From the IMG/VR virus record IMGVR_UViG_3300033121_002193, positions 1-64,000 of that record: a stretch of 64,000 nucleotides of DNA. One strand, given 5' to 3'. This document shows, piece after piece, positions 4,438 through 64,000 of the stretch (the stretch's first letter is position 1; the number at the start of each line of letters is the position of its first letter). Source of the stretch: a virus. Its lineage: Duplodnaviria; Caudoviricetes. The notes beneath the pieces are model-generated. The model made no database searches. It saw only the letters and a list, made by a program, of their open reading frames with translations, and was not told the DNA's origin. The translations under genes and the position numbers were made by a program.

Positions 4438-4469
4438 GACAATTCCGGTATTATGTAGCAGCTGCACCT
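4438..4469. repeat. Left TSD (GACAATTC) + left TIR of R-M cassette
   Basis: Read directly; partner at 6801-6832. Confidence 0.95.
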
Positions 4470-6012
4470 AGTAAAGGCTCAACTGTGTCGCAACCTTTTC
4501 CATGCCTGTGGTGGTATATCGGGCATAGATCTCATCACACTTTAAAAAACAAGCGAGCTTTGCCAATGAGAGGCGCTTAAGGATGTCGATTGTGATTGGC
4601 CGTTTATCATTCCAAAATATCATTGATTTCAGAAAGGCATGAGCTTCGGCCGAGTTCAGCAGCTCACAAATAAACTCTGCCTCATCCTGCGACTTACAAG
4701 ACAGGAAATAGATCGTATCATCAAAAACCACAGGCTGAGCGTTGATCGGGCCAACGGTGAAGAATTTAAGCCGCTTGTAGAATGCTGAAATAGCTACCTT
4801 CCAAAATGAGAAACTGTAATGGCCTACCCCAAAAATTGAAAATGGCGGACGATTCTTGTAGATGGAGCTTTTGCGGGCAGCGAAGGAGGACTCGTGCTCT
4901 TGCAGGTAAGCCCATGTCTTCGGTGCGGTGCGCCGAATCATGGCCGTATCCTCATTTACATAACTTTGGGTCACGATAATCTTCTTGCGACACTCTTTTA
5001 CCTTACCATTGCCGAGGTCGGAGCTTTTCAGCAGCGGATAAGTGTATTTCTGTTCAATATTCACTTGTCGGCCTAGGCCGTTCGTCAACGTGTTGCCGTT
5101 CCAATCCAGTTCCATTACCCGGCTGCAATCGTGTTTGATTCCCGACCGCCAAACATAAGAAGCGTCTGAACCCTTGAGATTGGCAAACTCCGAGTAGGCG
5201 TCTATATCCGATAGAATCATATTGTCTTTATACCCAATATGCCCACAGATTTTCGGGGTTGTTAGGCCATCATAAACGTAGCATTCAAAGCTTCTTTTTG
5301 TACCAACTTGTACGACGAACAGACACGCATCAACCGAAGCGCCGAAGTGAGCAGGCGCGTCAATCATGTAGATGGCCGCAAATTCTATCGGTTTGCTTTG
5401 CTTCCATGCTTGAAGCAGAATTTTTCGGGCAACGGCTGTTTTGCAGAGAATCCCTATCGTACCTTGTTTGTCTTTCAGCCATTCCAGGTATTGGAGCACC
5501 ATCCACTCGGAAATATCGAAGTTCGCCTTGCCGGTGATTGCATCAAGACCACTTCTTGCTTGGAAGTTCGCTTTCATGGGCAGGTTGGTTGCTTCCCATG
5601 CACCAAGGCTTGAATTTGTCACCCAAGGCGGATTGCCTGTTATCAGGATAGGTTCAGGAAGCGAAGCTACTAGCTTGCGCCAATTGACCGCAAAAAAATC
5701 GGCGTTCAATATTTGAACGTCTGTGCGTCTATCCAAATCTTTCAAGGATTGATTAAGCTCGTCATAATAGCGGGCGTTGATCTCAACACCGAGATATTTG
5801 GAAGTTGCAGGCAAGCCATGGATTGCCGCCAGCAAAAAAGTACCTTTTCCACAAGTAGGTTCAATGACGCTGGCCGGAGCGAGAGATAAGGATCGTTTAA
5901 GACAACTGATGGCTTCAGCCGCCAAGTGATGAGGTGTTTGGAAATCGCCAAAAATCTTGGTTCTGGCGATATCCGTGATTTCCGGCGTCTCAACGCACTT
6001 TATAGATACCAT
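4468..6012 (-). CDS. N6-adenine DNA methyltransferase (gamma-type; resembles NspV-like modification methylases)
   Basis: GDFQTP, IEPTCGKGTF (motif I), GNPPW (motif IV); stop codon overlaps the left TIR. Confidence 0.85.
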   Translation of the reverse strand: MVSIKCVETPEITDIARTKIFGDFQTPHHLAAEAISCLKRSLSLAPASVIEPTCGKGTFLLAAIHGLPATSKYLGVEINARYYDELNQSLKDLDRRTDVQILNADFFAVNWRKLVASLPEPILITGNPPWVTNSSLGAWEATNLPMKANFQARSGLDAITGKANFDISEWMVLQYLEWLKDKQGTIGILCKTAVARKILLQAWKQSKPIEFAAIYMIDAPAHFGASVDACLFVVQVGTKRSFECYVYDGLTTPKICGHIGYKDNMILSDIDAYSEFANLKGSDASYVWRSGIKHDCSRVMELDWNGNTLTNGLGRQVNIEQKYTYPLLKSSDLGNGKVKECRKKIIVTQSYVNEDTAMIRRTAPKTWAYLQEHESSFAARKSSIYKNRPPFSIFGVGHYSFSFWKVAISAFYKRLKFFTVGPINAQPVVFDDTIYFLSCKSQDEAEFICELLNSAEAHAFLKSMIFWNDKRPITIDILKRLSLAKLACFLKCDEIYARYTTTGMEKVATQLSLY

Positions 6013-6643
6013 CTACTTCACCAGCCTTCTGGATCACGCGGCTATATTGCAGTCGCCATTGCAGCGCATTCGAAATAGTAAGGTAACCTTGTAGCGGAGG
6101 AGCCTGCAAGACAGTCTCAGCAATGCTCCTAGCTTCAATTTCATCGACCGGCAGATTCTTGTCCCAAATAAAAGCCAACAGGTCATCCAAGTTGCCGTCA
6201 CGACTAAGAAGCTCTAAAATGCCTCTGGTCGTTTGATAGTCGGCAGTACGATCCTTTCGTACAAAAATGGTATGCAGCATTTTAAGCCTTCCAGTATGTT
6301 GCTTAGTGTCGTCGAATTTATCATAAACAAAAACCAGCAGATTATAGCCAAGTCCATAAATTTTCTGGCGAGCTGATCTGAAGGGACATGAAGATTGAGG
6401 TTGCTTAATGCTTGTCACCTTCAAATCGATTTCGAGACCGGGGAAATCAATCCCCGATGCTGAGTTTCCCGCCTCATACTGATATTTTCCGGCTAAATAG
6501 GCCTTGAACTTGTGCTCCAAATAGGTACCTATAGCCTTGCCATCCGTTATTCCGTACAAGGAAGGTTCGTCATATTTGCTCTCTATCTCAGCAAACTGAG
6601 CAGCTTCTTGTAGTAGGGTGTCCACGGTAAGCAGCAAATTCAA
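5990..6643 (-). CDS. Type II restriction endonuclease (PD-(D/E)xK; NspV-like by recollection)
   Basis: E...GIDFP..EIDLK catalytic pattern; AGAGGA RBS 7 nt before TTG start; overlaps MTase gene. Confidence 0.75.
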   Translation of the reverse strand: MNLLLTVDTLLQEAAQFAEIESKYDEPSLYGITDGKAIGTYLEHKFKAYLAGKYQYEAGNSASGIDFPGLEIDLKVTSIKQPQSSCPFRSARQKIYGLGYNLLVFVYDKFDDTKQHTGRLKMLHTIFVRKDRTADYQTTRGILELLSRDGNLDDLLAFIWDKNLPVDEIEARSIAETVLQAPPLQGYLTISNALQWRLQYSRVIQKAGEVDGIYKVR

Positions 6644-6800
6644 ATTCTTATCCTCTATGTGTAGGGCAATAAATATATATTATTTAAAACATGGACCTTT
6701 TTGATGGAAATCCATTAGTTTTCCCAAGAAAGCACAGCAATGTCGAATATCATAAAAAATCTATACGCTCCATATGATGGATTTTTAAACAAAGATTCTC

Positions 6801-6832
6801 AGGTGCGGCTGCTACATAATACCGGACAATTC
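6801..6832. repeat. Right TIR + right TSD (GACAATTC) of R-M cassette
   Basis: Read directly; inverted match to 4446-4469. Confidence 0.95.
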
Positions 6833-7833
6833 ATTGCTTGCTGTAATCTGAGTTGAGTTCCAGAAATTGCACTTTTAAATCTTGCTCTGTGTGCGTAAAG
6901 CATTGTCACTCCAGTAGGAGCGCCAACACCAGAGACACTAAAGCAAGTACCTGTTGCTGAAAAATCTTCAATTACACAAGACAAATAAACTTCTTTAGTT
7001 GTTCCACCAACAACAGAATCTACTACATTTATAATCCCGCTAATTCTAGGAACTGTATTGTATCCAATATGAGTAGTAGAACCTTCTGCCGGTATTCCTA
7101 ATGTTCCAATTCTTAAAGAATGTCTAATGCTGTCAATGTTGCCAGCTGTAATTGTCCAAGTAATATTTCGTGCATTTGTTGGTGCATAATTTGCGGTTCC
7201 TGGAGCGTATGCGCCTAAATTAAATGGCCCTCCGTTGCCCATTAAAGCAATATGCATAGAAGTTCCATCAAAAGAAATATCTTCATCATAACTTCCTGGA
7301 CTAATTAAAATGCACCACTCATATCTTACTCCGGTTGTTGTTAATGGCGTAGCTGTTCTGGCTGCCGAAATTGCAGCAGAAATTGTAACATATGGGTCTG
7401 CAATTGTTCCAGTTGGTGCAACCGCCGTTGAGTTTAAATCAACGTATAAAATTCTTGTTAATGGTGAAATTGCGGTAGAAGCTACATCTGGTTGCCACTG
7501 AGTACCATTATATTTTAATATTTGCCCAGCAAGTGGAGGCGTTGCCGAAACATTTACACCTTGTATTTTTGCTGCATCTGTACCTGAAGGTATTCTATTT
7601 ATATTAAAAACGCCAGATGATATTTTGCTAGCATCTAAATTTGGGATTGCCGCCGAAGTTAATCCGCCTACTGTCATAGCTCCACCAGAAACAATGGCGA
7701 CCTGATCATTTATTAGACCAGCGCTAACATCTTGACCAAATCCTCCATTTTCTTTAGGTACATTATTTACTGCAATTACACTACCAGAATTATAAGTTAA
7801 AATTTTTGCCATTTTTCACCTTACAAAAAAAAA

Positions 7834-8361
7834 TTACAAAATAACGGGAACTTGAGGCTGCCAAATACAAGGAAGTGCAGACCCAGTCATAGGATTGTAA
7901 CTTGATACGTCTAAAACTCTGCCAAGAATATAACTAATGTGTGTAGCTATGGTAGGCGCAACATTAGATACTTTTCCGCTCATATCATCAGACAAATACA
8001 CAAAATTTCCAGCACTTATAGTTAAACCAGGTACAAATAACAAATTAATCAATCCTGCTATAGAAATTGTACCAGAAACTCCTTGATATGCGCCTATAGC
8101 AGCAGATTGATTAAAAGTAGTTGCATTTGCTAAGTCTAGTGTATTATTTCCAATAATATAAGCTACCTGTCCAACTTGTGGATTTTCCCATAAAGTCAAT
8201 CCTGATATTTCAAGATCAAAACTAGCACTTGTTGTTAATGTTGTGGGAGTCCATTCTTTTGTTGCGTCAATAAATTTCAAAAATTGACCATCTTTTGGGT
8301 ATAAAGAGCTTACATCAAAACTTTGAATTTTTACAGCATTTCCGGCGTTATAATAAGACAT
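7834..8361 (-). CDS. Tail fibre-associated virion protein
   Basis: N-terminal KIQSFDVSS..PKDGQFLKF...EWTP segment parallels KIQGVNVS..PLAGQILKY...QWQP in the adjacent fibre; in structural module. Confidence 0.55.
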   Translation of the reverse strand: MSYYNAGNAVKIQSFDVSSLYPKDGQFLKFIDATKEWTPTTLTTSASFDLEISGLTLWENPQVGQVAYIIGNNTLDLANATTFNQSAAIGAYQGVSGTISIAGLINLLFVPGLTISAGNFVYLSDDMSGKVSNVAPTIATHISYILGRVLDVSSYNPMTGSALPCIWQPQVPVIL

Positions 8362-8367
8362 GCCATT

Positions 8368-8375
8368 AGATTAAG
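8368..8375 (-). promoter_or_regulatory. Putative late-promoter motif CTTAATCT
   Basis: One of 8 exact copies, each directly upstream of a minus-strand gene in the structural module. Confidence 0.65.
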
Positions 8376-8380
8376 TTTAT

Positions 8381-8409
8381 TTGACATAAATTGATTTTTT
8401 TTGTATACT
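8381..8409 (+). promoter_or_regulatory. Sigma70-type promoter
   Basis: TTGACA (8381-8386), 17-bp spacer, TATACT (8404-8409), upstream of ATG 8424. Confidence 0.75.
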
Positions 8410-8423
8410 TTTTTTTAAAACAA

Positions 8424-9452
8424 ATGATTTCAATAGATTTAATAAAAAAAGACGCATTAGATATTTGCATAAAAACTGAAATTTTTTCAATAGAAGAAAT
8501 TTCATGGATTACTTCTATTTTGTATAGATTAGATGGGAAAAATGGATTAGAACAATTAAAACCATTAATATTAGCATGCGAAAAATTTAATTTAGAAAAA
8601 AATAAATTAACCCCTTTTCAACAATATGTAATGATTTTAGAAATTCAGCATTGTTTATATGCAACAAAATCTTTGTACTCTAGACAGAAATCAATTTTAA
8701 TAGGAGTTCCACAAAGAAAAAAACATTATAAATATAGCGTTCCTAATTTATATGGCTTTGCAAATCCACAAGGAATAAAAGTAACAATTGATACTTGTTA
8801 TGGTTTGGGATATTGTGAAAGCAGAAATTACTTTGTTGAAAAAGCATTGCAAAAAAACACAGATTATACTCATATTTTTTTTATAGATGATGATATTTTA
8901 ATTCCTCAAAATGCATTATCTATAATGCTTAATTCTTGTGAGCCTATTGTTTCCGCAAATTATATGAAAAGAAGCGAATTGTATGAATCTGTTTGCACTT
9001 CTATAGAACCAGATGAACAGCTTATTTTTGGACATAAAGAAGTTAAGGCCAAAAAAGATGATTTTTCTTTAGTGTCAGTAAATGCAATGGGTTTAGGTTG
9101 TACACTAATAGATTTAAATGTTTTTAAAAAATTAGAACCTCCATATTTTCAGTTTATATATGATAATTTAGAAAACAACCAAAAGGGGAATTTGATTTTA
9201 GGTGAAGATACTTATTTTGTACATAAATCAATTGCAAATGGATTTACACCAAAAGTGATAGTTGGTTTAATACCTATTCATACCAATTTAAAAAATGGAA
9301 AAATGTATGCTCCAGATTGGGTTATTGATAAAGAAACAAATAAAATAAAAAATGAATATATTGATAAATATTGTCAATTTGCGTGTAATCCCAAAGAGTT
9401 ATATTCTGAAGATATAGACACTGTATTTAAACAACCAACGAGGTTAATGTAA
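8424..9452 (+). CDS. GT-A (family 2-like) glycosyltransferase
   Basis: SRN..VE.AL, HIFFIDDDI (DxD), GLGCTLID, GEDTYF; ATG 8424 preferred to TTG 8391, which lies inside the promoter. Confidence 0.75.
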   Translation: MISIDLIKKDALDICIKTEIFSIEEISWITSILYRLDGKNGLEQLKPLILACEKFNLEKNKLTPFQQYVMILEIQHCLYATKSLYSRQKSILIGVPQRKKHYKYSVPNLYGFANPQGIKVTIDTCYGLGYCESRNYFVEKALQKNTDYTHIFFIDDDILIPQNALSIMLNSCEPIVSANYMKRSELYESVCTSIEPDEQLIFGHKEVKAKKDDFSLVSVNAMGLGCTLIDLNVFKKLEPPYFQFIYDNLENNQKGNLILGEDTYFVHKSIANGFTPKVIVGLIPIHTNLKNGKMYAPDWVIDKETNKIKNEYIDKYCQFACNPKELYSEDIDTVFKQPTRLM

Positions 9453-10462: not shown

Positions 10463-10463
10463 A

Positions 10464-14245: not shown

Positions 14246-14248
14246 TAA

Positions 14249-46879: not shown

Positions 46880-47577
46880 ATGAAAAAAACAAAATGTACG
46901 TTTGTTGTTATAGATGGAATAAAATTGGAAAAGATACTCAAATAAATCAATTGAAAAATTATTTTTCCTCAAAAAACAAAACATATCTTTCTATTGATTG
47001 TATTGGATGGTCTCAACATAAAGATTTTATTCATTTGAAAGTTTTAAGAGAATTAATTTTTAATGCAAAAGAATTATCATCAAAATTAGAAGAAAAAACT
47101 TTTGCACTGGCTTCTTTTTTGAATTTACAAATAGTACAAAAATTAAAGGAAACTAATGAGTATGAATATATACTACAAAATAGAGGTCCTTTAAGCCATA
47201 TTGCTTATGGCTTAACGAAAAATCATTCTCGTAAACAATTAAATACTTATTACAAACAAGTAAATGAAATTTTGAACAATTTTAAGGCAAACTATATTAA
47301 TATTTGCTTGTTACCAAGAAATTTTGAATTATTTATAAAACAAAGAATTGATTTGGCAAAAAATAAACATAAAGAAATAAGTGCAAGACATGAAAAGCTA
47401 GAAAACATTGATTTTCAAAAAAAAGTATACTACAATATGTTAAATGAATTTAAATTAGCAAAAATGAATAAATCTTATTTTTTGCAAAAAGATAGCTGTA
47501 AAATGTTATTAATTGAAGAAAATTCTTCAATTGAAGACGTGAAAAAACAAATAATAAGCATAATAGAAAAGGAATAG
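46880..47577 (+). pseudogene. Thymidylate kinase-like gene frameshifted in the P-loop
   Basis: ATG 46880 gives MKKTKCTFVVIDGI then soon stops; -1 frame continues NKIGKDTQINQL...ILQNRGPLSHIAYG; joined = FVVIDGI-NKIGKDTQ (TMK P-loop). Confidence 0.6.
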
Positions 47578-49603: not shown

Positions 49604-49668
49604 AACAAGAAATAAATTAACTTTATCCGATGCATTAAATGAACAATTTAATTTAGGCACCTATATAC

Positions 49669-49697
49669 TTGTTTAACCCAAAATAATTTGATATAAA
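49669..49697 (+). promoter_or_regulatory. Transposase promoter, -35 inside the left TIR
   Basis: TTGTTT-17 bp-TATAAA with TGn extension, 7 nt before ATG 49705. Confidence 0.5.
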
Positions 49698-49704
49698 AAC
49701 CGTT

Positions 49705-50622
49705 ATGGAATTCACGAATCTCATAGAAGTGACTGAATACTTTTCAGACAAGCAGAAATGCATTGAGTATTTGACTCACATGAGATGGGCCAATGGTGTG
49801 CAATGTGTTTTTTGTGCCAATGAAAAAGTTTACGAATTAAAAGGTGAAAACAAGCGATACAAATGTGCCAAGTGCAGGAAGCAGTTTTCAGCCATTAAAG
49901 GCACCATTTTTGAAAACAGCCCAATTTCTCTGCAAAAATGGTTTTTGGCGGTTTACATTCTCACGTCTTATAAAAAAGGCATCAGCTCTGTTCAATTAGC
50001 CAGTGATTTAGGTGTGACTCAAAAAACCGCCTGGTTCATGGCTCAAAGAATCAGGTATGCCTTAAAAGTAAAATCCTTTGATTCACAATTAGAAGGCCCT
50101 GTCCAATGTGACGAAACGTTTATAGGCGGCAAAAATAAGAACAGGCATGCTGATAAAAAGGTACCTGAATCACAGGGTAGAAGCCTCAAAGACAAAACGC
50201 CTGTTTTTGGTGTTTTACAAACAGGTGGCCAATTGCATACGTCTGTCGTGCCAGATACCAAAGCTTCCACGTTAAAACCCATCATTAAAGAGCTGGTTAG
50301 AAACGGTTCTATTATTGTCACTGATGAGTGGACTGCTTACCAAAACCTGTCAAAAGATTACGATCACGTTGTCATTAATCACAAAAAACGTGAATATGTT
50401 AAAGGTGTACATCACATCAACGGCATAGAAGGGTTTTGGAGCGTCTTTAAAAGGGGTATTTACGGAATTTATCACCAAGTAAGCCCTAAACATTTGCACC
50501 GTTATTGTGATGAATTTGCGTTTAGGTACAACACCAAAAATTTGAACAACACCTGCAAATTTGATCTGTCATTAAAACGGACAGACTGCAGGTTGACCTA
50601 TAAGAACTTAATCTCTAAGTGA
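49705..50622 (+). CDS. IS1595-family transposase
   Basis: Zn ribbon CVFC...CAKC, GISSVQLA...QKTAW HTH, DETFIGG, TDEW, HINGIEGFWS, HLHRYCDEF. Confidence 0.97.
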   Translation: MEFTNLIEVTEYFSDKQKCIEYLTHMRWANGVQCVFCANEKVYELKGENKRYKCAKCRKQFSAIKGTIFENSPISLQKWFLAVYILTSYKKGISSVQLASDLGVTQKTAWFMAQRIRYALKVKSFDSQLEGPVQCDETFIGGKNKNRHADKKVPESQGRSLKDKTPVFGVLQTGGQLHTSVVPDTKASTLKPIIKELVRNGSIIVTDEWTAYQNLSKDYDHVVINHKKREYVKGVHHINGIEGFWSVFKRGIYGIYHQVSPKHLHRYCDEFAFRYNTKNLNNTCKFDLSLKRTDCRLTYKNLISK

Positions 50623-50674
50623 GATGAATATTTATTTTTAAAATATTTTTTAGGAAAAATTTAAACTAGCCAGT

Positions 50675-52672
50675 ATGTCACAAGTGAAAGATAATTCCCC
50701 ACTCAATTTAAATTTGGCGTCTCATGATGTTCTTGCTGAGCGTATTGAGAAACTAAAAGCGTTAATGCCCGAAGTTTTTACCGAGGGCAAGATTGATTTC
50801 GATCAGCTCAAACGATTCTTGGGTGAATGGGTTGAGCCCGGCAAAGAACGCTTTGGCCTGCAATGGCCTGGTAAAGCTGATTGTATAAAGATCATCCAGC
50901 AAACCAGCGTTGCCACACTGAAACCCTGTCGAGAAGAATCCGTCAACTTTGATGAAACAGAAAACGTATTTATTGAAGGTGAAAATCTTGAAGTTTTAAA
51001 ACTTTTACAGAAGGCCTACTTTGGCAAGATCAAAATGATATACATTGATCCGCCTTACAATACAGGCAAAGAATTCATCTATCCCGACAAATATTCTGAA
51101 ACGCTCGAGTCCTACCTTGCTTATACTGGCCAAGTTGATGATGAAGGGAAAAATTTTTCAACTGATAAAGACGCACAGGGACGTTTTCATACACGTTGGC
51201 TAAACATGATGTATCCACGTCTGCTTCTTGCGCGAAATTTACTCAGAGAAGATGGAGTGATTTTTATCTCTATCGATGACAATGAATTCAGTAATCTTGA
51301 AAATTTATGTAATGAAATCTTTGGTGAAGAAAATCACTTAACAACACTTCATATAAAGGTCAGGTATGAGGGTAAAACATTGGTAGAAGATATGGATTTT
51401 CAAAAGCTTGTTGAGCAAGTTTTAGTCTACGCAAAATCAAAGGCGCAGGTTAAATTGAACAAGCCGAGAAGTTCATACTCTTTTGATAAATTCAGATACA
51501 AAATCATTGAAAAAGGAGTTCCTAAAACAATTAACCTTGGCGGAAAAAAAGTAGAGATATTTTCTAGCAGCCAATTTGAAATTATAGATGCTGGCCCTTC
51601 TAAAGAAAATCTCAAAGAAATATGGGCTTCAGGAAAGATTTTGGATGGGAATTCATCTGGCAGGTTTTTCCGGGATTATCTATCCGGAAGAAGTGAAACC
51701 GACGGCTTAGGTGTACTTTATAAAGTACACGAGATAGGCAGTGATAATCTGTCGTATAGGTACTTTACAGGACCGAAGAGAGAGAGTGCTACAAAGGGAA
51801 GATATTATCAAGGTGTTCCATCGGATGTATTAATTGAAGAGCGGACTGAGCGGGCAATGCCAATAACAACGTTTTATGACTTCGCTGACAACTTTGGAAA
51901 TTGTAGACATGAGGGAAATATAGATTTTCGTGACGGGAAAAAACCCGTCGAATTTTTAAAAACTCTTATCAATTTGATCCATCATGATTCTGATGAGATA
52001 CTGTTGGACTTTTTCGCTGGTTCGGGATCGTTCGCGCATGCAGTATTAGATTTTGCCCAGGAACACGATCTTCGACTCAAGACTATTTCTATACAATTAC
52101 CGGAACCTCTTAAAGAAGAAGGTGAAAGTTCTAAAATTGGCTTTAAGACCATAGCAGATATAGGTAAAGAGCGTTTCCGTAGGGTTATCGGCAAATTGGC
52201 GAACAGCCTTGATGGGCAATTACGATTCTCGAAAAATAAATTTGATCTTGGTTTTAAAGTTTTCAAGCTTGATCGATCCAATTTCAAAATTTGGGAGCAT
52301 CATTCGGAAAAAGCCGACAACTTTGTTGAGCAACTCTCCCTATATGTAGATCATATTGATCCCCAAAGTACCCCTGAAGCTCTCCTTTACGAATTACTCC
52401 TTAAATCGGGCTTTCCACTGACTGCGACGGTTAACCAAATCACCTTGGCGGGCAAACAGGTTTTCTCAATTGATAGTGGCAAGATGTTGCTGTGTTTTGA
52501 GGATCCGATCAAAGAAGAAACCCTTTTAGAGATGCTAAAGCATCAGCCTGCAATAATGGTTGCACTTGATAAGGCCTTTCATGGCAACGATCAGTTAAAA
52601 ACTAACATTAAGTTACAAGCTGAAGCCATAGGTGAATCTGAACACGGCCGAGTGTTATTTAAGACGGTATAA
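50675..52672 (+). CDS. mod: Type III R-M methyltransferase subunit
   Basis: FIEGENLEVLKLL, IYIDPPYNTG, KKP..L, LDFFAGSGS (beta-class order). Confidence 0.93.
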   Translation: MSQVKDNSPLNLNLASHDVLAERIEKLKALMPEVFTEGKIDFDQLKRFLGEWVEPGKERFGLQWPGKADCIKIIQQTSVATLKPCREESVNFDETENVFIEGENLEVLKLLQKAYFGKIKMIYIDPPYNTGKEFIYPDKYSETLESYLAYTGQVDDEGKNFSTDKDAQGRFHTRWLNMMYPRLLLARNLLREDGVIFISIDDNEFSNLENLCNEIFGEENHLTTLHIKVRYEGKTLVEDMDFQKLVEQVLVYAKSKAQVKLNKPRSSYSFDKFRYKIIEKGVPKTINLGGKKVEIFSSSQFEIIDAGPSKENLKEIWASGKILDGNSSGRFFRDYLSGRSETDGLGVLYKVHEIGSDNLSYRYFTGPKRESATKGRYYQGVPSDVLIEERTERAMPITTFYDFADNFGNCRHEGNIDFRDGKKPVEFLKTLINLIHHDSDEILLDFFAGSGSFAHAVLDFAQEHDLRLKTISIQLPEPLKEEGESSKIGFKTIADIGKERFRRVIGKLANSLDGQLRFSKNKFDLGFKVFKLDRSNFKIWEHHSEKADNFVEQLSLYVDHIDPQSTPEALLYELLLKSGFPLTATVNQITLAGKQVFSIDSGKMLLCFEDPIKEETLLEMLKHQPAIMVALDKAFHGNDQLKTNIKLQAEAIGESEHGRVLFKTV

Positions 52673-52682
52673 GGAATTTAGA

Positions 52683-55412
52683 ATGAAAATTAAATTTGAT
52701 GCCTCCCAACAATACCAGCTCGACGCTATTCAATCAGTTGTAAATTTGTTTAATGGCCAACCTATGGCCGGGCAGGAATTTAGAATCAACTCCGTGTTCG
52801 GTTCGTTAAGCATGCCGCACTCCGCACTTGGCTTTGGTAACCGCCTGATTTTGTCAGATGCTAAGCTATTGGAAAATCTTCATGCCGTGCAAGCAAAAAA
52901 TGGTCTTAACCTCTCAGAAAAACTTTTAGGAGAGAGTGTCGAATACGACGCCCAAAATCTCGAATATCGGCTTACCAGCAACGCCAGAGAGAATGGCTGG
53001 TGTGTTCCACATTTTTCCGTTGAAATGGAAACGGGCACAGGCAAGACTTATGTTTATTTACGTAGTATTTTTGAGTTGCATAAAAATTATGGTTTTACCA
53101 AGTTCATTATCGTTGTGCCGACTGTGGCGATTCGTGAAGGCGTTAAAGCCAGTATTGACCTCACAGCTGAACATTTCAAAACGCTTTACGACAACACTCC
53201 ACTCAATCATTGGATTTATGATTCCAAATATGCTTCACGCTTACGTGATTATGCTGCTAGCAATCAAATTCAAATTCTAATCATTAATATCGATGCTTTT
53301 AATAAAAAGGATATCGCAGTCATCCATAACGAACGCGATCAGACATCGGGCAGGAAACCTATTGAGTTTATTCAAGCATGTAATCCTATCGTTATTATTG
53401 ACGAGCCCCAAAATATGGAGTCCGAGATCGCTAGACGAGCGATTACCAGTCTCAATCCGCTTTGTACACTACGCTATTCTGCAACTCACCTTAATCCGTA
53501 CAATGTTGTTTATCGGCTTGGACCTGTAAAAGCCTACGATTTAGGCTTGGTGAAGCGGATCGAAGTTAATTCTATCCTAGAAGAATCCAATTTCAGCAAA
53601 CCTTTTATTCATGTGCAGAGCATACAAAATACCAGCAAGAACAAGATTGTTGCCAAGTTGATTGTTGACGTTGAAGAAAAATTAGGACCACAGCGCAAAA
53701 CCATCAAGGTTGAAAAGCGTGGCGATGACCTTCATCAACTGACAAAGCGTGAGGCTTATAAAGGTTATTTCGTTGAAGAAATTCGTACTGACTATAAAAT
53801 CATTTCCTTCTCCAACGGTGTGACTCTCACAGAAGGACAAATTCACGGCGAACGAATTGATGATCGCTTGCGTATCCAAATTAAGGAAACGGTTAAGGAA
53901 CATTTTGAAAAAGAACTTTATATTTCTAAGCTATCCGAAAGCCAACGACTCAAAGTGCTATCGTTATTTTTTATCGATCGTGTATCAAATTATCGTTTAG
54001 ATAATGGAGGTAAAGGCAAAATCGCCCTTTGGTTTGAAGAAGCTTACGAAGAACTCCGCCATCATGACCGCTATAAATTCTTAGATTTGCCCTCAGTCGA
54101 CAAGGTTCATGACGGATATTTCGCTCAGGATAAAAAAGGCAATTATAAGGATTCGAGGGAAACCACTGAAAATCAGGAAGATCGCGATACTTATGTTGTT
54201 ATCATGAAGGATAAGATGCGTTTGTTGTCCTTTGCTGAGCCATTAAAATTCATCTTTAGTCATAGCGCGCTGCGCGAAGGTTGGGACAATCCTAATGTCT
54301 TTCAGATTTGCACGCTAAATGAAACACGTTCTGAGTTTAAAAAGCGTCAGGAAATTGGCCGTGGCCTCCGTCTTCCTGTGCGAGTGAATGGAGAGCGCTG
54401 TTTTGATAACGTTATTAATCGCCTTACTGTTATTGCCAACGAAAGTTACGATGATTTTGCACGTAACCTGCAAACTGAAATCGAAAAAGAAACGGGTGAG
54501 AAATTTGAAGGACGCATTAGAAATGTGCGGAGTCGCCGACGCGTCCAACTTAAAAAAGGGTGGCGTTTGGATCAGAACTTTGTTGAAATCTGGAATCGTA
54601 TTAAGCACAAAACACGTTATGCAGTTAGGTACTCAACTGAAGAACTTATCGAAAAGAGCGCTAAAGAACTATCCAAGAGCAAACCTATCTCTACTCCTAA
54701 ATTTACCATTCGCAAAAGCGAAATTATTACTACAAAGTCAGGTTTAGAGACTGAACTGCGCTCAGCTCGTGAAGAATTTATTGAATATTTTCACACTCAA
54801 GTTCCTGATTTAATTGGTTACCTTCAATCAAAGACAGAATTGACTCGTGGGACTTTAGCTAAAATCATTATTGAATCAGGACGTATTTCGGAAATTCACA
54901 AAAATCCTCAAAAATTCTTAGAACAAGCCTTAGAAGCCATCCAGCGAACATTGCGCAAGCTTATGGTTGACGGCATTAAGTATGAAAAAATTGATGGTGA
55001 TGAGTATGCAATGATGTTGTTTGAAGAACATTATGAACACAAGGAAATTTATAGTTATCTGGATCGTTTGATAGCTGTTGATCATTCAATTGTTAATTAT
55101 CTTGAATACGAATCAGAAATAGAGAAAAATTTTGCTGAGGCGTTAGATAAGCGTTCTGATATTAAATTGTTTTTCAAATTGCCTAGATGGTTTTTCGTTA
55201 AAACGCCCCTAGGAAATTACAATCCAGATTGGGCCATTGTGAAAGAAGAACAGGGTAAGTTTTTTAAATTATACCTCGTACGTGAAACAAAAGGAAAAAC
55301 AAGCAAGTCTGAATTACGCTCAAGTGAAGAGATGAAAATTGATTGTGGTTCTGCACACTTCAAAGAATTGAATGTCGATTTTGGCTGGATAGAAAATGCA
55401 GAGCAAATTTAG
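52683..55412 (+). CDS. res: Type III restriction endonuclease/helicase subunit
   Basis: METGTGKT, DEPQ, YSAT, LREGWDNPNVFQIC, QEIGRGLR, YNPDW...ETK; AAGGA RBS before ATG 52683. Confidence 0.93.
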   Translation: MKIKFDASQQYQLDAIQSVVNLFNGQPMAGQEFRINSVFGSLSMPHSALGFGNRLILSDAKLLENLHAVQAKNGLNLSEKLLGESVEYDAQNLEYRLTSNARENGWCVPHFSVEMETGTGKTYVYLRSIFELHKNYGFTKFIIVVPTVAIREGVKASIDLTAEHFKTLYDNTPLNHWIYDSKYASRLRDYAASNQIQILIINIDAFNKKDIAVIHNERDQTSGRKPIEFIQACNPIVIIDEPQNMESEIARRAITSLNPLCTLRYSATHLNPYNVVYRLGPVKAYDLGLVKRIEVNSILEESNFSKPFIHVQSIQNTSKNKIVAKLIVDVEEKLGPQRKTIKVEKRGDDLHQLTKREAYKGYFVEEIRTDYKIISFSNGVTLTEGQIHGERIDDRLRIQIKETVKEHFEKELYISKLSESQRLKVLSLFFIDRVSNYRLDNGGKGKIALWFEEAYEELRHHDRYKFLDLPSVDKVHDGYFAQDKKGNYKDSRETTENQEDRDTYVVIMKDKMRLLSFAEPLKFIFSHSALREGWDNPNVFQICTLNETRSEFKKRQEIGRGLRLPVRVNGERCFDNVINRLTVIANESYDDFARNLQTEIEKETGEKFEGRIRNVRSRRRVQLKKGWRLDQNFVEIWNRIKHKTRYAVRYSTEELIEKSAKELSKSKPISTPKFTIRKSEIITTKSGLETELRSAREEFIEYFHTQVPDLIGYLQSKTELTRGTLAKIIIESGRISEIHKNPQKFLEQALEAIQRTLRKLMVDGIKYEKIDGDEYAMMLFEEHYEHKEIYSYLDRLIAVDHSIVNYLEYESEIEKNFAEALDKRSDIKLFFKLPRWFFVKTPLGNYNPDWAIVKEEQGKFFKLYLVRETKGKTSKSELRSSEEMKIDCGSAHFKELNVDFGWIENAEQI

Positions 55413-55419
55413 AAAACCC

Positions 55420-55557
55420 ATGAAAACCCAAACCAAACACCCATCTAAAAAATCCAGCAAATTGTCTGCTTTTGAAGCAGCCATGATTAAAATTGCTCAG
55501 ACTCCTAAAAAAGACGTTGAAAAAGCCATTGCTCAAGATAAGAAAAAGAAAAACTGA
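55420..55557 (+). CDS. 45-aa basic peptide at right end of IS1595 element (not in ORF track)
   Basis: MKTQTKHPSKKSSKLSAFEAAMIKIAQTPKKDVEKAIAQDKKKKN. Confidence 0.5.
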   Translation: MKTQTKHPSKKSSKLSAFEAAMIKIAQTPKKDVEKAIAQDKKKKN

Positions 55558-56001
55558 AGGACTTGAGATCTGGGAATTTTTGGTTTGATTTGAATTTGTT
55601 TTGAATAGTCTGTTTGATAATTGGGTTAAACAGGTATGTAGGTGCCTTAATTTAATTCAAGGATTAATAGTCGGAATAAATCCGCAAGAGACTATATGGA
55701 TTTGCACTTGTTGTAATCAAATTCATAAACCTATTGATGTATGTGCTTTAGCTCCTCGTGGATTATATAACTTGTACAAAAAAGAAAAAAGAGAAATTTG
55801 GGAGAATTTTTCAAATGCTTACAGTACATCAAATAATAATGAATTATGGTGTCTTTCTTGTGCTCCTAAGAACAAAAAAATAAAAGTAAAATCTATTGTT
55901 TTGAGTTTTTTATTTGTTTTTTTTCAAAAAAATATTGATTAGTATTTCAATAATTGCTAACTATTTTCTTAACAATAAAGCTGAATAAATGGAGATGAAA
56001 A

Positions 56002-57208: not shown

Positions 57209-58762
57209 ATGATTAAAATACTATGTTTGTTTGTTTCTTTTTTTCCGTTTTGTATATTTGCCAATGAAGTAAATTTTCAAAAATTAAATTTGAATTCAAT
57301 TGATTACAACCAACCACTAATTATTAAAAAAGAAGACAGAATAGCAAAAGAAAGACATGATAGTTACGTTGGTTTTGGTTTTTGTAACAAAACAACTAGA
57401 TTTACAAGTGTTGCTGATTTACAAAACATAACAGATGCAATAACAGTCATGTTTGCACCACTTTTTAGTTCTGTAAATATCAACGGAAATATATTTACTC
57501 CAGTTGAAACAAAAAGTATTATAACTCAAGAATTAGATTTAAAAAAATGGCAAGATTTAAGCTCCATTGGAGACTTTAATTCATATCTTAGTTCTGATTT
57601 TTCGTTTTCTAAATTGCCATATAATGGAACAAAAATATTATCTAGATTTATTGGCTATTGGAATGTTAAAATTCCAATCGAAGGTACAATTGGGTTAAAT
57701 TCAGATGATGGCGCTTTAATTATTTTAGGGAATCAACCTTTTATATATTCTGCTGGTTTAAATCCAGGGAAAAGGCTAACAAGAAAATATAAATTCGAAT
57801 CTAGTGGTTTATATCCTGTTTATGTTTTTTATTATCAAAATTTAAACTCTTCCTATTTAGAAGTAAGCGACTTACTCGGTGAACCAACAAATAATAATTT
57901 CATGTTTGGAGAAACAGATATTCCATTAAACTTATTAGAAAATACAACTGTAATAAACGAAGATGGCAGCTATGCAAAAATGGAAATATTTGGAAATGAA
58001 AATATTTACACAACTATTATAGACCAACCACCATATACTTGTGAAATGTGTAATTATGACAGCGACTGTACTGTTGGAAATAAATGTTTATATGGTTTGT
58101 GTCAAAATATAAAACAAGTATGTGTTACTACAGATTTTTGTGGTAATAATTGTCAAGCTTGTCCAGTCGGAAGTAATGTGTGTGTAGACGGAAAATGTAT
58201 AGAATGTAATCAAGACTCAAACTGTTTTTTAAATCAGATATGTAAAAACAATAAGTGCATTCCAAAACCACCTGAATGCACTCAAGATATTGATTGTAAA
58301 TATACCTGGACGACAACTGAATATATTTGTAATAAAACATTGCTTAAATGCGAACTAAAAAAACCTGAATGCTCAATAAATACAGATTGTAAAGATAATC
58401 AAATTTGTAATTTGCAAAACAAATGCCAAGATAAAGTAGAAAATCCAATTTACAACTGCGATAAAGATGAAAATTGTATGTTAATACAATATTGCGATTT
58501 AACTTCAAAAATTTGTAAAAAATTGCCTCAAAACGGGTGTCGAATTCAATTACAATGCTTACAAAATTATACTTGCGATACTGCTGCACATTTATGTATT
58601 GAGAATAAAGATAATAAAACAGATGATTCAACAGAACAAAAGCCGAAAGCAATAGAAAACAAAGGTTGTAATCAATCGTCTTTAAATGGAAGTATAAATA
58701 TTCTCCTTGTTGCTTTTATTATATTCTATAAAAAAATAAAACATTTAACTATATTTACTTGA
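57209..58762 (+). CDS. TraA-like cell-surface protein (PA14-like domain, Cys-rich repeats, MYXO-CTERM-like anchor)
   Basis: Signal peptide; GFGFC; SRFIGYWNV...GLNSDDG...FESSGLYPV.V.YYQN...YLEVS; ~7 C-xx-D-x-D/N-C repeats; C-terminal KGC-linker-hydrophobic helix-KKIK. Confidence 0.75.
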   Translation: MIKILCLFVSFFPFCIFANEVNFQKLNLNSIDYNQPLIIKKEDRIAKERHDSYVGFGFCNKTTRFTSVADLQNITDAITVMFAPLFSSVNINGNIFTPVETKSIITQELDLKKWQDLSSIGDFNSYLSSDFSFSKLPYNGTKILSRFIGYWNVKIPIEGTIGLNSDDGALIILGNQPFIYSAGLNPGKRLTRKYKFESSGLYPVYVFYYQNLNSSYLEVSDLLGEPTNNNFMFGETDIPLNLLENTTVINEDGSYAKMEIFGNENIYTTIIDQPPYTCEMCNYDSDCTVGNKCLYGLCQNIKQVCVTTDFCGNNCQACPVGSNVCVDGKCIECNQDSNCFLNQICKNNKCIPKPPECTQDIDCKYTWTTTEYICNKTLLKCELKKPECSINTDCKDNQICNLQNKCQDKVENPIYNCDKDENCMLIQYCDLTSKICKKLPQNGCRIQLQCLQNYTCDTAAHLCIENKDNKTDDSTEQKPKAIENKGCNQSSLNGSINILLVAFIIFYKKIKHLTIFT

Positions 58763-59267: not shown

Positions 59268-59289
59268 AGGTGAAACTGCGACATAATAC
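59268..59289. repeat. Degenerate solo copy of the R-M cassette TIR
   Basis: AGGTGAAACTGCGACATAATAC vs AGGTGCAGCTGCTACATAATAC (reverse complement of left TIR), 19/22. Confidence 0.55.
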
Positions 59290-59295
59290 TTAAAT

Positions 59296-59724: not shown

Positions 59725-59781
59725 AAAGATAGATTAACATAAAATGAAGAAAAAAAAAACAAATTAAATCACACGGTTTAA

Positions 59782-59982: not shown

Positions 59983-59986
59983 TTTT

Positions 59987-60208
59987 TTATATGTGAATAT
60001 TTAAATCAAATTTATATTTATAGTTTACTTTAATTTCATCATTAGGATAAAATGTAATCGTAAAATTATCAAAATTGAAAACAATGGCACTAAATTTATC
60101 TCCAATATTATACTTTGCCAATGGTTTTTTTAAAACACAATTACAAAATTGAATTTCCATAAAGTCGGTTTCGTCATAGTCTTCATAATCAAACAATGTT
60201 GAATACAT
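59987..60208 (-). CDS. Hypothetical protein
   Basis: 73 aa with GAGAG RBS. Confidence 0.5.
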   Translation of the reverse strand: MYSTLFDYEDYDETDFMEIQFCNCVLKKPLAKYNIGDKFSAIVFNFDNFTITFYPNDEIKVNYKYKFDLNIHI

Positions 60209-60487
60209 TTTATTTCTCTCTTTTTATTTTTAGGCTGGTTAATTAATGTTTAAAGTTACAATATTAAAGCTTCACCCATTCTTTGAATGTTCATTTAATT
60301 TTTGATTTTTCGTAGTACGTTTCAATTTTAGTTAAGGTTGTATTTGTCATTTCTCTTTTTTTTATTTCAGCGTTATTTATTTTATTAACTGCAAATTTTT
60401 GCAATCATAATTCACTATTGTTTATTCATTTATGATTGTATCATATCTATAGGATGAAATAAAGATTATTCTTGTGCAGGTAGTGGG

Positions 60488-61381
60488 TCAGTTTGAAATA
60501 ATTAATTTCTTTTTGTAATTTCCTCGTTTTTTAGGTTCTTTTCTGTTTTCCCATTCCTCAACAATGTTTGCAACGTCTTCAACAGACCAAAGCTTGTCTG
60601 TAACTCCAGCCGCCATAGCAGGAGTAATACGCAAAGTTTGATGAATTCTTACAAAGTTATAATGCATAAAATAAAGCGCCATTGAATAAGCGTGATTTTC
60701 TGCTTTTTTAGAAAATGCGTTGGTAAGACGAGTGTGCCGACGATTAGCCATACGTATATTTAAATTCTGACGTTCAATGTAGCTTGTAGATACGCCTTTT
60801 TCATCAGGGTTACCTGCAATAGAACGTTTGGTGCAGCCAGTACATTCAGCTGGACTGTACTTGCCCTTCATTGATTCAGTTGTATTGCCATACATTTTAA
60901 CTAACATTGCGTAATCAATATCAGCGCCAAAAGCGCCCTCAACTGCTTCAAGATAAGCTTTCAGTCCATCGCTGGTTAATTGAATACGAGAAGCCATACG
61001 ACCAGCTAAATCTTGCATAAATTCATTTGCATACTCAGCATCACGTCCACCTACTAACCAAGATGGAATCAATTTTGTTTCTGCATCCATGGCAATCCAT
61101 GTCCATATATCACCTGCGCCTTCTGGGGCTGCTTTAGCTTCAGCGACATTCTTTTGCTTGGCATAACAGAAAGCCCAGATCTCATCGACTTGAATGCGTT
61201 TACAATGCAGATTACGAAGTTTTTTATCTTGGTACTCTGTAACGGCTTGCCCTGCATCTACCATGAACTTAATGACAGTGTTCTTGCTGCAACCAGTTAA
61301 CCTAACAATGGAACGAATTGAATTGCCTTCGGCCATGAGAGCTAAGATTTGAACACGTTTGTCAGTAGCAAGCTTATTCAT
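60488..61381 (-). CDS. IS1-family DDE transposase (single ORF)
   Basis: N-terminal HTH (EGNSIRSIVRLTGCSKNTV), IQVDEIW, LTSDG, IERQNLNIRM..RR.TRLTNAFSKK. Confidence 0.92.
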   Translation of the reverse strand: MNKLATDKRVQILALMAEGNSIRSIVRLTGCSKNTVIKFMVDAGQAVTEYQDKKLRNLHCKRIQVDEIWAFCYAKQKNVAEAKAAPEGAGDIWTWIAMDAETKLIPSWLVGGRDAEYANEFMQDLAGRMASRIQLTSDGLKAYLEAVEGAFGADIDYAMLVKMYGNTTESMKGKYSPAECTGCTKRSIAGNPDEKGVSTSYIERQNLNIRMANRRHTRLTNAFSKKAENHAYSMALYFMHYNFVRIHQTLRITPAMAAGVTDKLWSVEDVANIVEEWENRKEPKKRGNYKKKLIISN

Positions 61382-61426
61382 ATTTATTCAATATGACTTT
61401 TTATGCTTAACGTCAAGCATTAAGAG

Positions 61427-62890
61427 CTATTCATTGGTATTGAGTTGCTCCTGAATCCATTTAGTAGCTGTTTCTTCATCCTGTTCAATTGCTATTTCAA
61501 CAGCTCGTTTGGCTACATTGAGTAATCGCTTACTTTTAACTTTAAGAGCAAAGCTTTCTTCTATTAATACGGAAATTTGACGTTGTTTGTCATAGTCAAT
61601 CAACGGAATAATTAAATCTTTGAGTGTTTCTTGATTCAATCGCTGTTGAACGGAACCTCTGGCCAATCTGTCAATCATTTCGAAGAAAAATTTGCTATTA
61701 AATAGCAGGGTATAAACACTCGGGATATAGTAATCGGGGAGGTAAAAGCACAAAACATTGTCTGAATAAATCGCCCCATTTAGTTCGTCTCTTATTTCAC
61801 CAAAAACTCCTAAAGAACCTACTCGCGCAGTTATTATCCCCCCTTTTTTTGCCATACGAACGAAATTTTTCTTTTTGACGTAATAGTTATCGTCAAACTC
61901 TATTTGGCCACATTTAATGTTGGTACTTCTTATATAAAACGTTAGTCCCTCAATTTCATTTTTTCTGAAGTATTCCGGCGAATACTCTCCGGTATCAATA
62001 TGAATGATAAGATTAGCCAAAGAATCCCATCGATTGTGATGTTTAATGTGGCTCTCAATATCATGATATTTTTTCTGGTAATACTCTGCATCTAATCTGC
62101 CTGTAAGCATGAAAGAATCTTTAAAACTTTTAATGTTTACAGGAGATGTGCTGGGTTCAAAATCATTTAAACCAATCGTTTCGAGCAAAAGGGTTTCAGC
62201 AGAATTATATAATGCTTTGCTTTCAGTTAGCTTATCTTGCGCTTTGTAAAAAGATTTTTCTATTTCTTTTTGAAAACCTTCGGAATATGTAGGAATAATC
62301 ACAGTTTTTAAATCGTCAAGATTTAAACCCTTTTGAATTGCTCCTCTTTCTTTTCTTATTAATAATTCACGACCATATTTACAATTAAGAAAAGTTAATA
62401 TGTAAACTGGATTGATTTTAGAAATTCTTATAACCGTACTTTTACAACTAAAAATAGCAGGTAAATCTTTAGTTTGAACAATACAAGCATTTCCAAGTGT
62501 CCCAACTACTGAAACTAAAATATCTTTTTCTTTAAGAGCATATTTTTTTAATCTTTCATAATCGTCAAATGGAACAAATCTATTCTCACCGTCTTTTAAT
62601 ATAAAAGGCTTTACATCTTGGCCTCTTACGTATCGATATTCTCCATTTTCGACATAATTTTCAGTGTCAAAAGCTGAACCAAAAGGACCAATTAAGAAGT
62701 TGGCAACACTATTAAGTGCCGTATAGTTATTCTTGCAAACTTGTTTCTCGAAAGACAGTAGATGCTTCCTATAATACTCACTATCTATCCTTCCACTATA
62801 TTCTAAATCTGATTTTAAAATTTCTATTATCTCAAGCCCTTCTAACAAAGCTTTATATTTAGCTTCGTTAGAAGGGCTTAGACGAAAAAA
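61427..62890 (-). CDS. R-M specificity (HsdS-like, two TRDs) domain, probably translated as a -1 frameshift fusion
   Basis: RIDSEYY and RLDAEYY repeats, GAIQKGLN / GSVQQRLN; frame open from the slippery site at 62884-62890; only TTG 62848 as independent start, no RBS, buried in a hairpin. Confidence 0.8.
   Translation of the reverse strand, partial: FFRLSPSNEAKYKALLEGLEIIEILKSDLEYSGRIDSEYYRKHLLSFEKQVCKNNYTALNSVANFLIGPFGSAFDTENYVENGEYRYVRGQDVKPFILKDGENRFVPFDDYERLKKYALKEKDILVSVVGTLGNACIVQTKDLPAIFSCKSTVIRISKINPVYILTFLNCKYGRELLIRKERGAIQKGLNLDDLKTVIIPTYSEGFQKEIEKSFYKAQDKLTESKALYNSAETLLLETIGLNDFEPSTSPVNIKSFKDSFMLTGRLDAEYYQKKYHDIESHIKHHNRWDSLANLIIHIDTGEYSPEYFRKNEIEGLTFYIRSTNIKCGQIEFDDNYYVKKKNFVRMAKKGGIITARVGSLGVFGEIRDELNGAIYSDNVLCFYLPDYYIPSVYTLLFNSKFFFEMIDRLARGSVQQRLNQETLKDLIIPLIDYDKQRQISVLIEESFALKVKSKRLLNVAKRAVEIAIEQDEETATKWIQEQLNTNE
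62834..62890 (-). promoter_or_regulatory. Candidate programmed -1 ribosomal frameshift signal
   Basis: T_TTT_TTC in MTase frame, 4-nt spacer, then 19-bp stem AAGCCCUUCUAACGAAGCU / AGCUUUGUUAGAAGGGCUU with 8-nt loop. Confidence 0.75.
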
Positions 62891-64000
62891 CTGAATTTTT
62901 CCTTTTTAGCAAATTCGGCAAAAGCTTCGGCAATACCGTCCTTTGTTAGTCCATCGTGATTAAAAAGATCGTGCTTAACTATTAAATGCCCGTGGGTATC
63001 TAACAGGTATTCGTCCAAAATTTGTGGCGTTGCTTCGTAATGGTCAAATGGTACGGCAACTAACGTAACATTATTTTCTTTTTCGGTCGATTTTGAAAAA
63101 TCATTTTTACGGACAAATATTTTTTCACCGCTGTTGTCCTTACTTGACTCTTGCATGGTGGCAAAAAAAATAGGATAATCATCTACCTTTGGGCAAAGCT
63201 TATCGTCCCACTTTTGCACGAACAATACACTTGTTTTAGTTCCGGTATGGGGCTTAAAAACATTTCCGTGCAAGCCCACCACTGCTAATATGCGGCATCG
63301 TTCTGCAATGAAATCACGTATTTGTTTGTCGCCGCTGTTGTTGAAACGACCTTGAGGCAAAACAAGAGCCATGCGCCCACCAGGTTTTAAGAAACTTAAA
63401 TTGCGTTCAATAAATAAGATATCACGGCCCAAAGCACTTTGATATTTTCCGCTTATTTTTTTACCAAGTTCATACTTTGCTATCATGCGCGGTTCTTTGA
63501 TATCACCAGCAAAAGGCGGATTAGCCATTACAACATCAAAGCCAAAATCTCGATTATCATCTTTTGTTAAACGTAATTTACGTAGCTTTTTCCAACCCTC
63601 ACCATAAATATCTAACCAATTTTCGTCTTTTGTTTTTTCATCCCATCGTTCATAATCAAGAGTGTTCAAATGCAATACATTAGTTTGTCCATCACCAGCT
63701 ATCAAATTTAAAGTACGACCAACACGAACTGCTTTTTCATCAAAATCGATAGCAAAAACTTTGCTATTCACATAATCTTCGCAGCGAGCAGATTTTTTTT
63801 CTGTAGTATAAAGATGGTTTTGGCTGGTTCCTTCAATTTGTTGCCATACATGAAAAATTGCGTGCATAGGAAAACCACAACTTCCAGCGGCAGGATCAAT
63901 CAATGTTTCATTTTCTTTAGGATTAAGCATTTTGACGCACATGTCGATAACATAGCGTGGTGTAAAATATTGTCCTTTTTCACCTTTACTGGATTTGTTG
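62878..64000 (-). CDS. N6-adenine methyltransferase of Type I-like/IIB-IIG R-M system (5' end outside window)
   Basis: GQYFTPR (upstream of track start), DPAAGSCGF, ANPPF, LKPGGRMALVLP; frame open to window edge. Confidence 0.9.
   Translation of the reverse strand, partial: NKSSKGEKGQYFTPRYVIDMCVKMLNPKENETLIDPAAGSCGFPMHAIFHVWQQIEGTSQNHLYTTEKKSARCEDYVNSKVFAIDFDEKAVRVGRTLNLIAGDGQTNVLHLNTLDYERWDEKTKDENWLDIYGEGWKKLRKLRLTKDDNRDFGFDVVMANPPFAGDIKEPRMIAKYELGKKISGKYQSALGRDILFIERNLSFLKPGGRMALVLPQGRFNNSGDKQIRDFIAERCRILAVVGLHGNVFKPHTGTKTSVLFVQKWDDKLCPKVDDYPIFFATMQESSKDNSGEKIFVRKNDFSKSTEKENNVTLVAVPFDHYEATPQILDEYLLDTHGHLIVKHDLFNHDGLTKDGIAEAFAEFAKKEKFSFFV

Follow-up and report, generated by a model that had tools for sequence, protein, structure and literature searches.

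The stretch of DNA described here (the window) comprises bases 1–64,000 of one 135,485-bp virus record, IMGVR_UViG_3300033121_002193 (genome G000), and positions in G000 are the same as those in the window. The genome is that of a circular phage carrying three complete mobile elements with 8-bp target-site duplications (TSDs), named E1, E2, and E3, and each has a restriction-modification (R-M) system as cargo. An earlier note on this DNA had recognized three R-M classes on elements of the insertion sequence (IS) type in one phage, and all three elements are confirmed. Catalytic motifs are intact in every cargo enzyme and transposase of E1, E2, and E3. Sister phages have these three vehicles at many sites, and the cargo there is almost always R-M, in agreement with the IS-borne R-M delivery network that the note had proposed. 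The explanation that we favor, with a probability of about 0.55, is that transporter ISs resident in the phages circulate R-M systems, which are kept for excluding rival DNA.

The phage belongs to a clade of ~140-kb myoviruses that are distant kin of Myxococcus phage Mx1, the closest cultured phage (44.6% identity of the capsid protein). The GC content of the phage backbone is 29%. The runs containing the region are from samples of activated sludge, wastewater, and river.

The terminal inverted repeats (TIRs) of E2 match at 22 of 24 positions, and the TSD of the element is TTAATTTA. The transposases of E2 and of E4, an element located beyond the window, are of the Zn-ribbon and DDE type and match the IS1595 models PF12762/PF12760 and NF033547 (217 and 154 bits, cut-off 75). 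The cargo of E2 fits a Type III R-M system, with an adjacent mod gene (DPPY motif) and a res gene encoding an SF2 helicase with a C-terminal nuclease. Res is 33% identical to Res of phage P1, and matches to it were found in 19 of 50,697 records. The insertion splits an open reading frame (ORF) of 115 residues with unknown function. An exact empty site, identified in a different study, lacks 5,999 bp, with 8 ambiguous bases, and the empty site is also present in seven sister contigs. The passengers travel with the element, since the transposase, Mod, and Res genes are found together at a second site with its own TSD and 97% identity.

E1 is bounded by 24-bp TIRs that match at 23 of 24 positions and by the TSD GACAATTC at positions 4438–4445 and 6825–6832. 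The earlier note had described two complete elements with TSDs and near-perfect TIRs, which holds for E1 and E2, and E3 is complete as well. E1 is a non-autonomous IS1595 cassette, which lacks a transposase and has ends in common with the autonomous E4. Because the ends of E1 are those of E4, two of the three vehicles belong to one family, and the vehicles are not unrelated, as had been thought. The identical ends also make E4 the likely source of the helper transposase for E1. Its transposase is 30% identical to that of E2, and its cargo consists of XRE, DUF6471, and Panacea antitoxin genes and a putative toxin gene. Thus, the claim that every recognizable cargo is R-M holds inside the window, whereas E4, beyond it, carries a toxin-antitoxin-like pair. 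The C-terminus of the E4 transposase is altered (353 versus 342 residues) beside an apparent IS21-type fragment. The E1 restriction endonuclease (REase) is 73% identical to a protein annotated as NspV, and this family match predicts TTCGAA as the recognition sequence. The depletion of cognate sites for which the earlier note called is not seen for TTCGAA, which occurs 9 times versus 11 expected (14 sites in the genome), as is expected for a recently acquired cassette. No promoter consensus was found upstream of the E1 REase gene. Exact searches of viral contigs with the E1 TIRs, and searches of viral contigs with the E4 transposase, returned no match.

The insertion of E1 is indicated indirectly, by its TSD and by the in-frame repair of a 673-residue ORF after its removal. 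A tail-fiber-like function of this ORF is weakly suggested. It is part of a variable island (3043–8361) that is missing from one relative and has different cargo in three others. No orthologue of this target gene was found among the relatives searched, and hence there is no empty site for E1. The elements were said to disrupt backbone genes; however, E1 hit this ORF of an accessory island and E2 a 115-residue ORF.

The TSD of E3 is CTTGTGCA, and its TIRs start with GGT, as do those of IS1 elements, which have TSDs of 8–9 bp. The best-matching family of the E3 transposase is IS1, with scores below the cut-offs (22.7 versus 24.1 for PF03400 and 56 versus 100 for NF033558). The insertion site is apparently intergenic, and the element also contains an ORF of 74 residues. 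The cargo had been called Type I-like or IIB. A Type I assignment was rejected because the nuclease is fused to the methyltransferase (MTase) and no helicase or motor subunit (HsdR) is present within the E3 TIRs. The IIB part of the claim agrees with the gene layout: a nuclease-MTase (RM) fusion and a separate specificity (S) subunit with two target recognition domains (TRDs) are typical of BcgI/BsaXI-like Type IIB systems, a class that cuts on both sides of a bipartite site, and, given the missing motor and RM.BsaXI as the closest solved relative, the cargo is IIB/IIG-like. At the RM/S junction, a slippery-like heptamer and a hairpin (Table 1) are retained in five sister copies (L125, L130, L135, L137, and L146) despite base changes in the stem. 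It is likely, judging from these features, that a programmed -1 frameshift yields an RM-S fusion. As for the names of IS groups, we presume that E1-type ends belong to ISNha5, we take E3 to belong to ISMhu11, and ISPna2 is presumably a further group involved.

Table 1 Positions of elements E1–E4 and their genes in G000
Feature	Position	Strand	Description
E1	4446..6824	.	Transposase-less cassette with IS1595 ends, 2,379 bp, GC 45%
Type II N6-adenine MTase (E1)	4468..6012	-	514 aa; NPPW motif
NspV-family Type II REase (E1)	5990..6643	-	217 aa; PF27258 and PADLOC REase_II; PD-(D/E)XK intact
Accessory tail-fiber-like/Gly-rich gene	3404..7812	-	Single 673-aa frame after removal of E1 and one TSD
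E2	49656..55646	+	IS1595-family transporter element, 5,991 bp, GC 39%, 8-bp TSD
IS1595 transposase (E2)	49705..50622	+	305 aa; PF12762/PF12760, NF033547 above cut-off; DDE intact
Type III Mod (E2)	50675..52672	+	665 aa; DPPY
Type III Res (E2)	52683..55412	+	909 aa; Walker A/B and PD-(D/E)XK intact
E3	60479..64000 in window, to contig position 65275	-	IS1-like transporter element, 4,797 bp, 21-bp TIRs, 8-bp TSD
Helix-turn-helix (HTH) and DDE transposase (E3)	60488..61381	-	Single ORF, 297 aa; best family IS1, below curated cut-offs
Two-TRD S subunit (E3)	61427..62848	-	~473 aa; TRDs vary among sister copies
Slippery-like U-rich heptamer and 18–20-bp hairpin (E3)	62834..62890	-	At the RM/S junction; the -1 frame reads on into S
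HSDR_N_2 nuclease-MTase fusion (E3)	62878..64000, start at contig position 64935	-	685 aa; best PDB match RM.BsaXI
E4	66679–70508 (L001 10679–14508)		IS1595 element; E1-matching TIRs, imperfect TSD

The junctions of the elements are supported by contigs on the left side of E1 and on both sides of E2 and E3. In the probable source run, Logan contigs span both junctions of E2 and both of E3 at 66–73x with zero differences; these contigs are from another assembly, though probably from the same sample. The left junction of E1 was found again in a second JGI contig (L156), used for this junction only, as it becomes high-GC at a Gly-rich repeat and is probably mis-joined there. Two pairs of TIRs with 8-bp TSDs lie wholly within the window, compared with none in 12 shuffles. 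The bridged E2 and E3 junctions and the empty E2 sites speak against the chimeric assembly that had been named as a possible refutation, and among the loci compared no exact empty sites were found for E3 and E4, so the search for empty sites in relatives succeeded for E2 and not for E1, E3, or E4. The question of circularity is answered as well: in the probable source run, each contig end joins an E2-type inverted repeat. An 8-bp word is common to the contig ends, and the sequence of a relative with 95% identity continues across the position with a single copy of this word, which indicates a further E2-type element at the break (135485/1). This element, with an 8-bp duplication, is at the 3' end of dnaE, and its cargo is unread. 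The insertion restores the dnaE stop codon, provided that the left end of E2 follows. The same run contains a transposase variant with ~92% identity at ~40x.

Sister phages carry elements of all three types, and their sites are given here as the matching positions in G000. E2-type elements with Type III cargo are at 49656 and near 107,775, one with a 1,273-residue single-chain Type IIG enzyme is near 55,783, and right ends at two further sites have cargo that is unread. E3-type elements are at 60479, near 47,100–47,390, 107,703, and 59,772. An E3-type element is also present in a more distant phage, with an identity of only 30–66% for the backbone proteins and of 94–96% for the transposase, which demonstrates at the level of sequence that E3 has moved horizontally between phage lineages. 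The S subunits are mosaics: TRD1 of L125 is that of L137 and TRD2 that of L135, and the G000 subunit differs in both. E1/E4-type elements carry a 781-residue BcgI-like fusion in a 95% relative, where G000 has a 468-bp deletion remnant, and, both near 101,004 and near 3,040, a 1,032-residue IIG enzyme whose TRD is of the ISP type; the 3,040 hotspot also has a non-R-M derivative. At certain of these sites, one end is not on the contig or the duplication is imperfect. L133 was left out of the counts because its left and right flanks match two different sites. Lone TIRs and fragments at 59291, 70902–71128, and 84633–85100 of G000 are, by their sequence, traces of earlier insertions that have since decayed. 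A distant relative with a complete genome of 144 kb contains no IS1595 match, none of the TIRs, and no N6-MTase match.

The cargo of the three vehicles in this and the sister phages is not random, with R-M genes at 12 of the 13 sites with readable cargo and six distinct R-M cargos. Distant relatives of these ISs have R-M or methylase genes in ~10–20% of cases. Among delimited relatives from outside the clade (43–68% transposase identity), R-M or methylase genes are present in 3 of 35, and the remaining cargo comprises P63C, KilA-N, HTH, IrrE, toxin-antitoxin, and unknown genes. When undelimited loci are included, the count is 8–12 of 79. In other phages, 4–6 of 29 transposase clusters are accompanied by R-M or methylase genes. 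Eight of ten sites selected without regard to cargo carry R-M genes (p = 3e-5 versus 3/35 and 6e-5 versus 12/79), as do six of eight distinct cargos overall (p = 2e-4 at a background of 15% and 0.004 at 25%). The enrichment is real and rests on few independent events.

The ratios of nonsynonymous to synonymous substitution rates (dN/dS) are 0.06–0.07 for the nuclease domains, 0.04–0.13 for the methylase parts, and 0.03–0.10 for the transposases, indicating from sequence comparison that the cutting function is conserved. Selection on the R-M cargo, which the earlier note considered, is thus supported by dN/dS, and its place may be either the phage or the host chromosome. All transposase copies with at least 90% identity on interpretable contigs are on phage contigs of this group, and no bacterial contig was found to have one. 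The identity of the E2 transposase falls from 96% within the group to at most 71% outside.

Together, the copies demonstrate capture of complete R-M systems between TIRs, repeated transposition with 8-bp duplication, swaps of cargo, shuffling of TRDs, movement of E3 between phages, and decay. In the explanation that we favor, these processes would be the work of three transporter-IS lineages, two IS1595 groups and one IS1-like, resident in the Mx1-related clade, with E1 presumably mobilized in trans by an E4-type transposase that recognizes its identical ends. Insertions outside essential genes would survive. During persistence or co-infection, active restriction may cut unmethylated DNA of rival phages and plasmids, including sisters of other specificity, and methylation would protect the DNA of the phage and its progeny. 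Rare specificities would be favored, leading to turnover, and dead copies would leave the lone TIRs and deletions that are seen. A further, tentative idea, which we hold to be doubtful, is that the ISs pass from phage to phage without a chromosomal reservoir and constitute a swappable, frequency-dependent self/non-self code. If so, the cassettes and shuffled TRDs of each strain would cut co-infecting or superinfecting sisters, possibly even if the phages are mostly lytic.

Several observations weigh against the exclusion of rivals by phage-borne systems. The sites are not independent, and if only new captures in the blind sample are counted, three of five carry R-M genes (p = 0.014–0.027). The nearest outside relatives of E2 (L029, L158–160, and L162) often have R-M or methylase genes, so part of the bias predates the clade, and one vehicle also carries non-R-M cargo. 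Copies of E3 differ from one another, as do transposases, by a synonymous divergence (dS) of up to 0.3–0.8, apparently more than the divergence of the backbone (~95% nucleotide identity); purifying selection could therefore predate arrival in the phage and have taken place in a hidden host reservoir. The GC content at third codon positions (GC3) is 0.25–0.51 in the cargo versus 0.14–0.22 in backbone genes. As to persistence in the cell, no tyrosine integrase was found in the phage, and the genes that could support it are those for a short serine recombinase and for a ParA-like protein, the latter confined to the close clade. An alternative is spill-over from a host chromosome rich in R-M-bearing transporter ISs, which would be near-neutral passengers in the phage, with the enrichment being that of the host or of the IS lineages. 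We regard this as unlikely. It would agree with the unameliorated GC of the cargo, the decayed copies, the R-M bias among the closest outside relatives of E2, and the affiliations of the elements, as Bacteroidota have the closest named relatives of the E2 transposase, and ends of the E1/E4 type are present in Alphaproteobacteria. In addition, metagenome-assembled genomes from short reads frequently lose ISs. However, no bacterial contig has a copy at the 90% level, the depth of E3 in the probable source run equals that of the backbone (70.7x), though the host could be scarce in that run, and R-M or defense genes without an IS (the 1,065-residue IIG and DUF262 genes described below) were also inserted in the clade. 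Furthermore, 2–6 kb of neutral cargo per element would be costly for a packaged genome.

The R-M elements could instead be selfish, persisting through post-segregational killing upon loss of a resident phage or plasmid without any benefit against rivals. This explanation is improbable: it fits the separate REase and MTase genes of E1, a class known as addictive, and could draw on the Panacea-type toxin-antitoxin-like pair of E4, and it predicts diverse specificities as well, but five of the six cargos belong to the Type III or fused RM(-S) classes and the plasmid state is only hypothetical. Type III and fused RM(-S) enzymes can generally enter a naive cell without harming it and are known as poor addiction modules with little or no post-segregational killing, which is why exclusion is preferred to addiction, and the addiction suggested in the earlier note suits E1 only. 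The probability is slightly lower still that methylation is the sole benefit, with progeny pre-methylated against a host R-M system of the same specificity and the nucleases as passengers. Solitary MTases are a common solution in phages (PMC4176335). The backbone of G000 avoids several GANNTC words, among them GAAATC/GATTTC (0.36 of expected) and GAATTC (0.48), as well as GATC, and the phage encodes a Dam-like MTase, indicating that host restriction matters; the avoided words suggest long-term pressure from a host R-M system. Nevertheless, every full-length copy examined has intact nuclease domains, with a degree of conservation close to that of the methylase parts (dN/dS 0.06 versus 0.04), which argues against a benefit from methylation only, and no fully read element of the clade carries a solitary MTase. 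The proposal of the earlier note that host defense transposons disarm the phage, like that of a chimeric contig, is very improbable. The tail-fiber-like ORF broken by E1 and the many IS remnants at 65–87 kb could be taken in its favor, but this ORF is an accessory one, the dnaE stop is restored at the contig break under the proviso given above, contigs bridge the junctions, and there are empty sites. The insertions are in accessory or small genes, in intergenic regions, or at gene ends, and none was found in a core, structural, or replication gene, so that disarming is unsupported, and bacterial contigs yielded no copy with at least 90% identity.

Transporter ISs, TIR-flanked R-M systems, and the mod-res locus of P1 are already known, and a clade-wide system of three vehicles with interchangeable R-M cargo appears to be undescribed in the literature searched, the coverage of which is incomplete. 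Transporter ISs are defined as a class in PMC9330008, those of the IS1595 family are attributed to Siguier, Gagnevin & Chandler 2009 in PMC2853133, and the context given for them is that of resistance genes. The elements described here resemble the latter in their single-ORF transposases, ~24-bp TIRs, 8-bp TSDs, and passengers between the ends, but here complete R-M systems, the largest of them Type III, serve as passengers and are exchanged among near-identical vehicles in a phage clade. TIR-flanked, transposon-like R-M units were described in Xanthomonas oryzae and Neisseria gonorrhoeae (Furuta, Abe & Kobayashi 2010, PMC2853133). Like E1, they have R-M genes between inverted repeats, an 8-bp duplication, empty sites, and no intact transposase, and they include a IIG and S unit close to the cargo of E3. 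However, they are single chromosomal cases with an unidentified helper, whereas here the likely helper E4 is co-resident and many phage sites are occupied. E3 shares with BsaXI and BcgI the nuclease-methylase fusion, the two-TRD S subunit, and the absence of a motor subunit, and differs in being IS-borne, in TRDs shuffled between phage copies, and in the possible -1 RM-S frameshift. The phage-plasmids P1 and P7 are likewise large phages with a complete Type III mod-res. The mod-res of P1 is a fixed locus and not IS cargo. The phage described here also differs from P1 and P7 in having its own replisome, in its relation to Mx1, and in that a plasmid state is hypothetical.

Complete R-M systems are rare in phages, with nine in 831 genomes (PMC4176335), and transposases are very rare (PMC10879196). 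Phage-plasmids exchange transposases and R-M genes among other genes, and the IS load and defense cargo of G000 are like those of phage-plasmids (PMC10879196). The clade, in which single genomes have at least three intact R-M systems, delivered by three vehicles and reshuffled between strains, forms a natural series for studying why phages keep restriction enzymes, whether for exclusion, addiction, or methylation. It has caught transporter ISs exchanging cargo and S subunits exchanging TRDs, with donor alleles identifiable, and may be a source of compact R-M enzymes with new specificity.

The serine recombinase (1246–2067, + strand, 273 residues) has resolvase and partial recombinase domains, resembles the N-terminal half of large serine recombinases, and is kept in close and 70% relatives; its gene adjoins the variable island, and it may act as an integrase, a resolvase, or an invertase. 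The ParA-like gene (101042–102127) scores below the NCBIfam cut-off, and its product has 361 residues versus 376 in sisters. A TraA-like protein (57209–58762, + strand) has an Atlas value of 0.96 to a Myxococcota TraA cluster and a weak NCBIfam hit; its gene has backbone-like GC3 and is conserved in sisters. The TraA-like gene and the kinship with Mx1 point towards a host among Myxococcota or a related predatory group, although the low GC of the phage is at odds with a Myxococcus host.

A 1,065-residue single-chain IIG gene (L121 18619–21816) precedes the terminase gene in sisters and has none of the three TIR types, so R-M genes have another route of arrival too. A DUF262/PD-T4-2-like gene (G000 86215–87480) is kept in relatives. 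A 470-bp duplication (82263–82732 and 84162–84631) of a DarG C-terminal-like ORF abuts an E1-type TIR; the ORF is single-copy in the relative G001, so the duplication was probably IS-driven. An IrrE-like peptidase gene (71252–71794) adjoins a lone TIR, and an IS3-like fragment is at 78565–79080. An AT-rich inverted-repeat candidate at 79568–85752 was treated as a chance occurrence. Some of the sequence of E2 and E3 has low-depth coverage in the RNA run X4, which was not used, because contigs cannot show expression. The region 73200–78500 contains arrays of MORN-like and pentapeptide repeat genes that have N-terminal modules in common.

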